Source: a virus (lineage: Duplodnaviria > Heunggongvirae > Uroviricota > Caudoviricetes). Taken from it: 13,563 bases of DNA. Location: IMG/VR virus record IMGVR_UViG_2778261358_000001. One strand, 5' to 3'. Each line of letters begins with the position of its first letter. Positions within the stretch are counted from its first letter, which is position 1. This document shows positions 1 through 3,000 of this stretch, one piece after another. The position numbers were made by a program.

Positions 1-3000
1 GTATCAGCACCTGAATCCGCGATTATCCCATATACCTGGTTGCTGATCGCCCCTCCGCACAGGGGGATTCACCATGCAGAAGTGTTTTTAATAAACAGCA
101 AATAAAAAAATCAAGCATTATGCAGGCTGTTTCTTTTTATCACCGGCCACAGCAATACCACAATGCCGCAGACCAGCACCCCATCCGCCAGCACCGACAT
201 GATTCTGCTGGTGAAATCCACCATCACCACCAGAAACAGCAGGAGTGCAGCCACAGCCAGGCGCAGTTTTACCGTCACTGGTGATTCTCCAGACGAAGAC
301 CCAGAACACCGGCAATCTCTTCCAGCACCTTGCGCTCTTCCGGCTCAATTTCGCCGTCTGCCTCCGCAATGGCCACCGCCACATCCAGCACATCTTCCGC
401 TTCACGCGTATCGTGTTTCACATCTTCAATTTCACGCAATGCCGCTCGACGACCAATTTTAAAGTTCGTATCCAGCTGACCGATAATGGTTGCGCTAATC
501 GCATTAATTTCTGACGTAAACGCGGACAACGCAGGCTGGTTACGCAAGACCTGCTCGATCTTCGCTTTCTCTGAAGCCTCACATTCACCATCTGCATAGG
601 CCACCAGATAGGCAGCATTAATAACCGCCTGTGCCAGATCACGTTTCTCAAACTTTTTAATTTCCACTGCCGCTCGGCGGGCTTTTTTACCAAAAATACC
701 AAACATCGTGACGTTCCTTTGGGTGGGTGAGCCAACGCCCGGGAGCGATCTGCCCACAGAGAAAGTCACACTGACCACTCCGTAAGCTCACCCCCGAAAG
801 GCTCTGTGGTTGATATGCGCCGGGCGTGGCGCAGATACAAAAAAAGCCCGCCGAAGCGAGCCTGATAATAAATCTGGAGCGGGTAGCGGGAATCGAACCC
901 GCATCATCAGCCTGGAAGGCTGAGGTAATAGCCATTATACGGTACCCGCATATGGTGCCGGCTACCGGAATCGAACTGGCGACCTGATGATTACAAGTCA
1001 GTTGCTCTACCATTGGAGCTAAACCAGCATGTTTGGCGGGACAGCGTGGACTCGAACCACGATAAGAAGGTTAACAGCCTTCCGTAATGACCTTTATACG
1101 ACTGACCCAAATAAAAAAAGCCACCGTTGCAACTTAAGAGTCACTAACGGCAGCTTACATCTTTAAACGGTATGATATTTCATTCTGGCTGCCTCAAAAG
1201 CCGCAGCGGCAAGTTCGGCAGTGTCATGGTATCCAAGGTTAATACACTTTCCAGACGCATTAATTCTTGCTCTCCATTTCCCGTACTTAGCATCCCAAGA
1301 CACGCCACGGTATCCAGATTTATTATTCTTCTGAATTTTCCTGTTTTGCATATTTTCGGAATGAGTGACAAGACGAAGATTTGATATCCGGTTATCTGTT
1401 CTTACCCTGTTGATGTGATCAATAAAACCATCTGGCATGGTGCCATAAACAATCAACCATGCCAGTCTGTGAGCAGGGTATGCTTTACCATTAATCATAA
1501 TCATTAAATACCCATCAGAATTTATTGATGAGCATTTCTTGAAAGCAAAACGAGAGTTCCATGTCAAAGTGGTCCTCTCTCTCCCCTGCCTCCACCTCCA
1601 GTGAAAGTCGCCTGATGATGGATTGTAATCAACAACAGAAAGCACCATTTCTGGCGTTAATTTTATTTCTTTCATCGCTTTACCTTAGGGATAGAGCCTG
1701 TTCGCGTAGATATGACAGCCAAGAGCGGAGCGATGTTTCCACCACCATATCTCAGGCCCATATCACTAAGACTCTTGTTTTGATTGCACGCGAATGCAAA
1801 AAAGCCCACAGGAGGTGGGCTTGTGATGGTTGCTGAATGCAAAAGCAGCAGCATATGTGAATATTATGGCTAAATGGCTAATTGCATGTCAAGACTTTTA
1901 ACAGCAACATGCTTAACTTTCTCAACACGTTTACGCATTTTGAAAGCATTTTGCATTGGTTGGTACAAAACAAATAATGACGCTTTCAGGATATCGTCAA
2001 TTTCGTTTCTACAGGTTGCCAGTGAAGGTTTTCTCCATCCCTCGCCACCGCGTCCACACATCTTGCGTGGCTTTGCAGTCGCGTGATAGTAGGATGCAAT
2101 TGCTCTCTTAGATGAACCATGAGCGTAGTAGCTGAGGAGGATGCCAAAGGCTTTCTTGTCAATGTACATGACGGAATCGACGACCTGAGAAATCAACATT
2201 CCATCATCATCATTGCACATTGGTCTTGTCATAACTCTTCCCGGCTCTACGCTCTCCATGAACTTCGCTATTACGCTGCTCATGCGCTTTTCCAGACGAC
2301 CTGAATAAACCCATGCGCCCCACAGTTCAAGCCAGCCATTCAGCCAATCGTGCTGTTCTTTGGTGAGGTTTGGTTCTCTTATGCCCATGCGACTTCTCCC
2401 TTGTTATCTGGAATGGTTTTTACTGAGAGCGTCATGCGGCCTCACTTCTGCTGTTTCGCAGGTCTTTGAGTTTCTGTTGGTACTCTGCCTTGATGGCCCT
2501 GCACTCTTCGACAGTCCAGCGATGGCGGTTATGGTTTGATTCGATTTCATCTACTGCTTCCTGCCCGATGCGGCTAATCAGTTCGACGCGATACAGAACG
2601 AGATTTCCGCTTTTGTGCTGGTTGCACACCACGCATTGCTTGTGAATATTGCGTTCATCAAATCGGAGTTGAGGTGCCGCAGCAGTTGTCCGGTAATGTC
2701 CGGCATCCCACTGAGCAGACGTGAGCGTTCCGCACGAGATACATGGTAAGTCGCGGTCTCTTTCTCTGACGAAGGCGTTTACGGCTTGTTGGGCTTGTTT
2801 AATCCAGTAACTGCGGGGCTTTAAGGCGAGTTTTCGAATCTTCAGTTTATCTTTCTGTTTCTGCTCCTCTCGTCGTCGTTTCTTCTCTGCTGCTTTTTCC
2901 GCTTTTTCGCGTTCTTTACTTCGTCGTTCGAGTGCTAATTGAGTTCCGTGTTCCGGGCAGCACCACCACTGATTTGAGAATGCCGGGTGAAACCATTCCT

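Follow-up and report, generated by a model that had tools for sequence, protein, structure and literature searches.

Which genes does a phage carry in the place where Stx phages keep their toxin genes, and what might they do for it? The DNA analysed here, hereafter the window, is a stretch of 13,563 nucleotides from IMG/VR virus record IMGVR_UViG_2778261358_000001 (Caudoviricetes), for which an earlier note had described, downstream of Q, pR' and tR', an HNH endonuclease gene, three tRNA genes, and then a TerB-domain gene coupled to a gene for a 55-aa protein with two transmembrane segments. We found all of these elements in the positions it had given, on the minus strand (Table 1). The note had also regarded the pairing of a TerB protein with a small membrane protein as an unrecognised combination, which it is not: the gene pair is already known as tciA/tciB, named in phage P1, also annotated in phage JLK-2012 and classified in PHROG families 632 and 1470.

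Table 1 Features of the tciAB locus in the window, with positions counted from its first nucleotide.
Feature	Position	Strand	Details
STnc100/PasD-like sRNA element	1-103	minus	Rfam RF02076, 47 bits, equal to the gathering score; directly 3' of tciB, truncated where the window ends
tciB	111-278	minus	55 aa, GTG start
tciA	275-706	minus	143 aa from ATG (MFGIFGKK...)
tciA/tciB coupling junction	275-290	minus	GGAG 290-287, 8-nt spacer, GTG 278-276 overlapping TGA 277-275
Leader of the tciAB cassette	707-863	minus	hairpin and U-run 863-844; AGGA RBS before the tciA ATG
tRNA cluster	875-1108	minus	Asn(GTT) 1034-1108, Thr 956-1028, Gly(TCC) 875-949
Second terminator hairpin	1113-1162	minus	17-bp stem and U7; fold -20.2 kcal/mol, z -4.1
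HNH_3 and AP2 homing endonuclease	1163-1675	minus	Pfam; PADLOC 'HEase' models; between pR'/tR' and the tRNAs
tR'-like terminator hairpin	1822-1802	minus	fold -12.5 kcal/mol, z -3.5
pR'-like promoter	1892-1863	minus	TTGACA-18-CATAAT, 11/12 hexamer matches (consensus scan), at the Q 3' end
Late antiterminator Q	1870-2388	minus	172 aa; Pfam Phage_antitermQ, E=1.3e-25

TciA is a cytoplasmic TerB-domain protein, soluble and all-helical, in which both acidic ADG...E motifs are intact. Its start was placed at the ATG because every homologue begins at MFG, and a 167-aa reading from an upstream GTG at position 778 was rejected on the same ground. The TerB assignment was upheld by an HMM profile search (Pfam TerB, PF05099; E=4.2e-16, 59.7 bits against a cut-off of 24.4, residues 26-138), by a sequence-profile match to Klebsiella TerB (PDB 2JXU, E=4e-12) and by fold comparison, and the protein also matches PHROG 632 (E=8e-69). 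Since the single-sequence AF2 prediction was poor (pLDDT 55.7), a model built from a 25-sequence alignment was used instead, which has seven helices (pLDDT 85.8, pTM 0.81). Its best Foldseek matches are TerB-like 2h5n (probability 1.00, TM 0.53-0.62) and then 2ou3, a COG3793 tellurite-resistance protein, with E-values of only 0.03-1. The N-terminal segment (residues 1-22) is basic, with a net charge of +6, and the all-helical body is acidic, with a net charge of -13. The two ADG...E motifs consist of D39/G40/E46 and D117/G118/E124; G118, E46, and E124 do not vary in the 25-sequence alignment, where D39, G40, and D117 are conserved in at least 90% of the sequences. Such conserved acidic residues were reportedly proposed as metal-binding in TerB by Anantharaman et al. 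in 2012. The gene itself is under strong purifying selection (dN/dS 0.04, dS 0.34; 35 alleles).

TciB, with its 55 aa, is a membrane protein that forms a helical hairpin, in line with the two transmembrane segments given in the earlier note. This identification agrees with a match to Pfam DUF3927 (PF13064; E=4.3e-17, 62.3 bits against a cut-off of 25), with a match to PHROG 1470 (E=4e-30) and with the hydropathy profile, which contains two hydrophobic stretches at about residues 7-20 and 26-47, separated by a DFTSR turn. Both termini are basic, so the positive-inside rule predicts an N-in/C-in hairpin. An alignment of 16 diverse homologues shows R6, the DFT turn, DG.LV in helix 2, and a C-terminal P..K as conserved features, and the dN/dS of tciB is 0.30, compared with 0.38-1.5 in control frames.

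The two genes are joined by a GTGA at 278-275, in which the tciA stop and the tciB start overlap, again as the note had read it. Of 80 close IMG/VR loci, about 72 retain the tciB frame and this overlap. Among 24 divergent loci, 20, some of them in virulent phages, have a TciB homologue that begins no more than 7 nt from the TerB stop; measured from the last base of the tciA stop, these starts range from 7 nt upstream to 5 nt downstream. The small frame is thus conserved and is not a chance ORF. Across phage families, the proteins are conserved and the pairing is retained at identities as low as 30-40%, and the coupling is ancient; the pair is under purifying selection and has been kept together across unrelated temperate and virulent phages. 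The partnership is not uniform in composition. In Pseudomonas phages AF and Zuri, TciB is replaced by a non-homologous one-helix protein (phrog_27356), whose gene is start-stop coupled to TerB in AF and lies 5 nt downstream in Zuri; Vibrio phages have TerB without any small membrane partner, and phages 434 and 2B8 have TciB without TciA. It was also observed that a small membrane partner recurs beside TerB even where it is non-homologous, as in AF and Zuri, and that P1 adds a further one, TciC. No ancient TerB-DUF3927 fusion was found among 1.84 billion representative proteins searched with TciB and 5.8 billion searched with TciA. The fusions seen among close relatives are sporadic frameshifts (P0184, of 197 aa, P0241, P0172, and L062), and P0130 is an unrelated chimera, so fusions lend no evolutionary support to a physical TciA-TciB complex.

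As to the position of the cassette, tciAB occupies the Stx-equivalent slot, which bears out the note's placement. Like stxAB and other cargo of the Q-pR'-tRNA slot, it lies after the tRNA genes and before an STnc100/PasD-like element (preprint 10.64898/2026.05.13.724894) and a SASA esterase gene. This RF02076-like element is a downstream boundary common to Stx phages and follows stxB in locus L109. In Shigella phage 75/02 Stx, window positions 1-91 recur about 95 nt after stxB and ahead of the SASA esterase, and positions of about 47-91 match some 90 Stx-converting phage records. What occupies the slot is different, since the StxAB and TciAB proteins are unrelated and tciAB encodes neither a secreted toxin nor a signal peptide; tciA is absent from all phage records whose name starts with 'Stx'.

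The cassette is widespread. Of 5426 complete E. coli genomes in RefSeq, 840 (about 15%) have the pair annotated. The median per genome is 6 copies, and carrier strains include O157:H7, O145, and O111. Annotated public sequences match the window copy fully or at 99.8% identity. It also occurs in virulent phages (Machinavirus, Schitoviridae, and Nickievirus). The tciA/tciB genes of JLK-2012 (JQ347801) and the pairs that RefSeq annotates as 'TerB family protein' and 'DUF3927 family protein' in EHEC prophages represent the same cassette in the same slot, with TciA 99% identical and the order Q - tRNAs - tciAB - SASA esterase - S/R/Rz; only the flanks differ, the window having another Q type and the HNH gene between pR'/tR' and the tRNAs, a gene that is missing from most related loci. 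tciAB ranks among the most frequent cargo pairs that EHEC lambdoid prophages carry in the toxin slot, and a role for it would cover two PHROG families as well as what non-Stx prophages express from pR' upon induction. Our literature search found no functional study of tciA/tciB or DUF3927; the genes are named by homology or described as being of 'unknown function'.

The tciABC genes of P1 provide the named counterpart, with TciA and TciB 42% and 50% identical to the window proteins and with the same gene order and start-stop coupling. P1 has in addition a 35-aa one-helix TciC, whereas the 110 nt that follow tciB up to the window end hold the STnc100-like element and no tciC-like ORF. According to GenBank notes, the P1 pair lies downstream of C1-controlled ban promoters, in contrast to the window pair, which would be carried on a Q-dependent late transcript. 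Published work shows that these P1 genes are transcribed during P1vir infection, that tciA, tciB, and tciC were non-essential in a CRISPRi screen, and that about half of the P1 subgroup-1 phage-plasmids have lost them.

Two further systems share the TerB domain. The TerB of ter operons (terZABCDE) belongs to the same domain family and helical fold class, but it is distant from TciA and recognised at profile level only. TerB is reported to be membrane-attached and to work with the membrane protein TerC; this partner is a multi-pass protein, whereas that of TciA is a 55-aa hairpin. No TerC, TerD/TerE, or TerZ/TerA gene lies beside tciAB, whose neighbours are the tRNAs, HNH, Q, the sRNA element, and the SASA esterase, and a true phage ter cluster, as found in Vibrio phage MS02 (TerD-TerD-x-TerC-TerB), looks unlike it. 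In DjlA, a transmembrane segment anchors a TerB-like domain on the cytoplasmic side of the inner membrane, and residues 87-139 of TciA weakly match NCBIfam DjlA (29.1 bits against a curated cut-off of 162). DjlA is, however, one polypeptide with a J domain; in the window the membrane protein is encoded by a separate gene and a J domain is absent.

The transcription signals indicate when the pair would be made. From pR', three terminator hairpins must be passed before tciAB is reached, which fits the Q dependence suggested in the earlier note. In addition to the tR'-like hairpin, these are the second hairpin, whose homologue in phage 21 (megablast match) is the region annotated there as the tR' terminator, and an intrinsic-terminator-like hairpin at 863-844, right after tRNA-Gly (fold -12.3 kcal/mol, z -3.8). 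No promoter-like site was detected between the tRNAs and tciA, leader included, by a scan that a weak constitutive promoter could escape because it relies on consensus matching only. The 160-nt leader gave no Rfam match and no promoter-like site, and we rejected the idea that it holds a conserved regulatory RNA or promoter; its divergence is 0.19, compared with 0.22 at tciA third-codon positions, and it is thus not better conserved. Homology of the cassette with other prophages begins at window positions 859-899. Together, pR' and Q-dependent readthrough suggest that tciAB is made in lytic growth and not in the lysogen.

We therefore consider tciAB an accessory cassette, carried as late lambdoid-prophage cargo in the stxAB slot, and a lytic-cycle module with a role at the inner membrane, a reading to which we give about an even chance. 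In this model, transcription would start at pR' and need Q to read through the three terminators, and TciA and TciB would be produced in a roughly fixed proportion. TciA may then act with TciB on the cytoplasmic side of the inner membrane, the two proteins being, by analogy, a possible split version of the membrane-helix-plus-TerB-like layout of DjlA and of TerB with TerC. The module would condition the inner membrane of the infected cell and so let infection be completed, for instance by buffering ions or metals, the proton-motive force or envelope stress; laboratory conditions would not require it. Phage types probably differ in expression class, with the pair late in lambdoids and downstream of the C1-controlled ban promoters in P1.

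Other functions have to be weighed against this model. The gene name and annotations, through homology to the terB of ter operons, imply a Ter phenotype, and the pair sits in the classic moron slot that it has in common with stx, at a median of six copies in genomes of carriers such as O157:H7; tciAB could accordingly be a lysogenic-conversion or defence moron, expressed in the lysogen to give the host part of that phenotype: resistance to tellurite or pore-forming colicins, or superinfection exclusion. We regard this as unlikely. The cassette lacks the partners TerC, TerD, TerZ, and TerA, three terminators stand upstream with no promoter detected, and the P1 genes lie downstream of C1-controlled promoters. 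Virulent phages, which form no lysogens, keep the same pair, so a benefit to the lysogen cannot be the selected function there. The note's hint at phage defence fared no better: in PADLOC-DB v2, TciA matched only PDC-S48, non-significantly (E=0.0031, 14.7 bits, 36 residues), TciB had no match, and membership in a known anti-phage defence system was rejected.

A regulator of lysis timing, with TciB acting like a holin or antiholin or with TciA-TciB steadying the proton-motive force and so tuning the downstream holin, would agree with the small two-helix N-in/C-in hairpin, which has the size and topology class of class II holins, and with the position of the cassette in lambdoid relatives, about 2.3-2.5 kb upstream of S-R-Rz on the same late transcript. 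Ter operons, moreover, protect against pore-forming colicins (Whelan, 1995). This role also seems improbable to us: TciB has no holin-family match in Pfam or PHROGs, a 1.85-kb esterase gene separates the pair from holin S in the relatives, the P1 genes tciA and tciB are non-essential, and the annotations of P1, Erwinia jumbo, and N4-like phages do not place the pair beside lysis genes. The difference in expression class between phage types further weakens a specific link to lysis timing. Least demanding in function would be selfish cargo that persists by travelling with the tRNA/moron hotspot, as might be suggested by the recombination of the cassette as one unit behind varied tRNA sets and Q types, by its frequent loss from P1-like elements and by occasional disrupted copies (L066, L070, and L084). 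The strong purifying selection on tciA and the conservation of the pairing across phage families argue against it, and we hold it to be very unlikely.

Within the lytic-cycle model, a bolder and in our judgement rather doubtful extension is that TciA-TciB and the Pseudomonas TerB/one-helix pairs form a widespread device in which a membrane-docked TerB shields the inner membrane or the proton-motive force of the infected cell from depolarisation, serving as counter-defence or infection insurance and not as host resistance. The depolarising insults would include pore-forming colicins, abortive-infection systems that target the membrane, and holins triggered too early. If true, this could explain why EHEC prophages have up to ten tciAB copies.

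The tRNA genes upstream of the cassette deserve a separate remark. ARAGORN detected tRNA-Gly and tRNA-Asn, and Rfam detected all three; the one at 956-1028, an Rfam-only match of 49 bits, has a counterpart annotated as tRNA-Thr in relatives, where the trio is annotated Asn/Thr/Gly. Across the related loci the set varies, and 42 of 81 have Met(cat)/Arg(/Arg) tRNAs, which correspond to two or all three members of the ileZ-argN-argO set of Stx phages. P1, like the window, has tRNA-Asn and tRNA-Thr genes upstream of the pair, but a 'tRNA-Asn/Thr + tciAB' DNA module common to the two phages was rejected, since the P1 tRNAs, despite the like order, are of other lineages: they align with the window tRNAs in far fewer matching columns than the phage 21 tRNAs do. 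The tRNA-Asn sequences of the window and phage 21 are identical.

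TciA, the TerB-domain protein of the pair, is encoded on the minus strand, like the other genes of this finding. Every homologue begins at the MFG methionine, and the true start of tciA is therefore 706; a longer mechanical reading from a GTG at 778 was rejected. TciA matches Pfam TerB (PF05099) at 59.7 bits (cut-off 24.4) and PHROG 632 'tellurite resistance' at E=8e-69, while a profile of it hits Klebsiella TerB, whose structure is solved (2JXU), at E=4e-12. An alignment of 25 sequences gave a confident AlphaFold2 model (pLDDT 85.8, pTM 0.81) with seven helices. Its top Foldseek matches are the TerB-like crystal structures 2h5n and 2ou3, with weak E-values (0.03-1), so the TerB assignment is carried by the sequence-profile evidence. 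The two ADG...E motifs, D39/G40/E46 and D117/G118/E124, are both conserved. The first 22 residues form a basic segment (net +6), and the remainder of the protein is acidic (net -13).

TciB matches Pfam DUF3927 (62.3 bits, cut-off 25) and PHROG 1470 'TciB-like' (E=4e-30). A DFTSR turn separates its two hydrophobic stretches and both termini are basic; the positive-inside rule predicts an N-in/C-in hairpin. The tciB start overlaps the tciA stop as GTGA, with a GGAG 8 nt upstream. Of 24 divergent loci (TciA identity to the window protein 28-71%), 20 carry a TciB homologue, whose start falls anywhere from 7 nt before to 5 nt past the end of the TerB stop codon. The earlier note had described a TerB protein whose stop overlaps the GTG start of a 55-aa two-TM protein, and the profile matches, the two hydrophobic stretches, these homologues and the junction read in the sequence bear it out. 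In-frame TciA-TciB fusions (195-197 aa) occur sporadically in close E. coli relatives (locus L062; proteins P0184 and P0241), probably by frameshift at the GTGA junction. Among the searched proteins only such sporadic fusions were found, and no ancient TerB-DUF3927 fusion.

The window is a lambdoid prophage containing cI, cro, cII, O, P, NinB, an Ant/Rha-type protein, NinG and Q. The order proposed earlier, namely Q, pR', tR', an HNH endonuclease, three tRNAs, then the TerB and membrane proteins, holds in every detail. The HNH_3+AP2 homing-endonuclease gene is missing in most related loci, which suggests that it is a mobile gene recently inserted in the late leader. The second hairpin shares homology with the tR' region annotated in phage 21. 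Here it follows another Q/pR'/tR' set and the HNH gene, and it appears to be what remains of a late leader of the phage-21 type joined to the tRNA-Asn/Thr genes. Three tRNAs (Asn, Thr, Gly) follow it, two of which are found by ARAGORN and all three by Rfam. A promoter scan returned no promoter-like site between the tRNAs and tciA; with three terminators in the path, expression of tciAB from pR' would depend on Q for read-through of all three.

Features of the tciAB late region and the cI-proximal region in the window
Feature	Coordinates	Strand	Description
pR' promoter	1892-1863	-	TTGACA-18-CATAAT, near consensus, at 3' end of Q
tR' terminator hairpin	1822-1802	-	after pR'
HNH_3+AP2 homing-endonuclease gene	1163-1675	-	between pR'/tR' and tRNA cluster
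Second terminator hairpin	~1156-1118 (region 1113-1162)	-	strong, -20.2 kcal/mol
Third terminator hairpin	863-844	-	after tRNAs, before tciA then tciB
tciA	275-706	-	143 aa, begins MFGIFGKK
tciB	111-278	-	55 aa, GTG start
STnc100-like sRNA element	1-103	-	Rfam RF02076, 47 bits, equal to gathering score; cut by window end
cI repressor gene	9710-10417
153-aa ORF and 348-aa kinase gene	10887-12388	+	next to cI

Relatives arrange this region as Q, tRNAs, tciAB, esterase, S/R/Rz. In the window the STnc100-like element directly follows tciB. The corresponding segment of Shigella phage 75/02 Stx is found ~95 nt beyond stxB and ahead of a SASA (NanS-p-type) esterase, and a core of the segment (about 47-91 of the window) matches ~90 Stx-converting phage records. 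The tRNAs end ~170 nt upstream of tciA in 48 of the 81 close loci (80 from IMG/VR and one metagenome-assembled genome), and 42 of these 48 have Met(cat)/Arg or Met(cat)/Arg/Arg tRNAs, which correspond to the ileZ-argN-argO set that Stx phages carry. The relatives' order, the stxB-linked segment and the Stx-type tRNAs therefore make 'Stx-equivalent locus', as the position had been called, correct. None of the TciA-homologue records is a phage named 'Stx...'. A 2026 preprint (10.64898/2026.05.13.724894) lists TerB among genes conserved beside the prophage sRNAs PasA and PasC, and relates STnc100 to PasD, located upstream of the esterase.

The pair had been put forward as an unrecognised combination, which does not stand: tciAB is a catalogued, very common phage gene pair, carried as late-operon cargo. 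GenBank phage JLK-2012 names it tciA and tciB after P1 tciABC, and both the TerB homology and the TciB homologues are already noted in GenBank for the P1 genes; RefSeq uses 'tellurite resistance TerB family protein' and 'DUF3927 family protein'. It is annotated in RefSeq in 840 of 5426 complete E. coli genomes (median 6 copies per genome, maximum 10), with O157:H7, O145, O111 and O103 among the listed carrier strains, and across 2.4 kb the IMG/VR locus L007 matches the window at 100% identity. Phage records with a TciA homologue number 131 and include P1- and D6-like phage-plasmids, lambdoid phages, Erwinia jumbo phages (Machinavirus), Schitoviridae phage Zuri, other ~70-kb phages of Salmonella, Shigella and E. 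coli, Nickievirus and Vibrio phages.

A small membrane protein recurs beside TerB, whether homologous to TciB or not. In the two Pseudomonas phages AF and Zuri, a non-homologous one-helix protein (phrog_27356) replaces TciB, overlapping the TerB stop in AF, and P1 differs in an extra 35-aa one-helix peptide, TciC, as third gene. The phrog_27356 proteins (L005 1932-2153 in AF; L106 2943-3146 in Zuri) share the motif C.WYG.QTERET.YA.FVGCMV; AF has no annotation for this ORF, and the Zuri record wrongly labels it 'tellurite resistance protein'. Vibrio phages carry TerB without a small partner, and vB_VpaP-MS02 (L103 1-2926) has a ter-like cluster, TerD-TerD-hypothetical-TerC-TerB, lacking TciB. 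Conversely, phages 434 (L110 1612-2844) and 2B8 have TciB without TciA: the gene ahead of tciB encodes a 247-aa multi-pass membrane protein that matches no Pfam family, and a second small membrane protein follows TciB, in the same Q-to-esterase slot.

TerB working with TerC, and DjlA, in which a membrane helix precedes a TerB-like domain, are precedents for TerB at a membrane. By analogy, the TerB domain of TciA would act on the cytoplasmic side of the inner membrane, partnered by TciB, and the two would condition the ion, proton-motive-force or envelope-stress status of the infected cell. We regard this as the most economical mechanism and give it an even chance.

As to role, the pair is kept by virulent phages, stands behind terminators on the late transcript and, in P1, lies downstream of the C1-controlled ban promoters; we therefore consider an accessory role in the lytic cycle likelier than lysogenic conversion. 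Published authors call the tci genes morons or of 'unknown function', and report them transcribed in P1vir infection. P1 tciA, tciB and tciC are non-essential by CRISPRi, and about half of P1 subgroup-1 phage-plasmids have no tci genes. Among close alleles dN/dS is 0.04 for tciA (dS 0.34) and 0.30 for tciB, versus 0.38-1.5 in control frames. A lower probability attaches to near-neutral hitch-hiking, to Ter-like resistance benefiting the host, and to a role in lysis timing. A PADLOC defence-system search of the pair gave no significant match.

The cassette is mobile as a single block, and its upstream boundary, at 859-899, takes in the third terminator; the close-locus comparison showed no extra constraint on the tciA leader. 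tciAB recurs beside tRNA clusters in unrelated phages (L003, L004, L087, L090, L094, L096, L102, L107), among them P1, Erwinia jumbo phages and Pseudomonas ZY21, as in the 48 close loci, and D6-like plasmids show the same neighbourhood (PMC6799933). The tRNA lineages differ between these phages, so the tRNAs and tciAB are not one shared DNA module.

Elsewhere in the window, the 153-aa ORF, which has no Pfam match, and a eukaryotic-type Ser/Thr protein kinase gene (Pkinase E=2e-46) are co-transcribed with cI; we take the kinase to resemble Stk of phage 933W.
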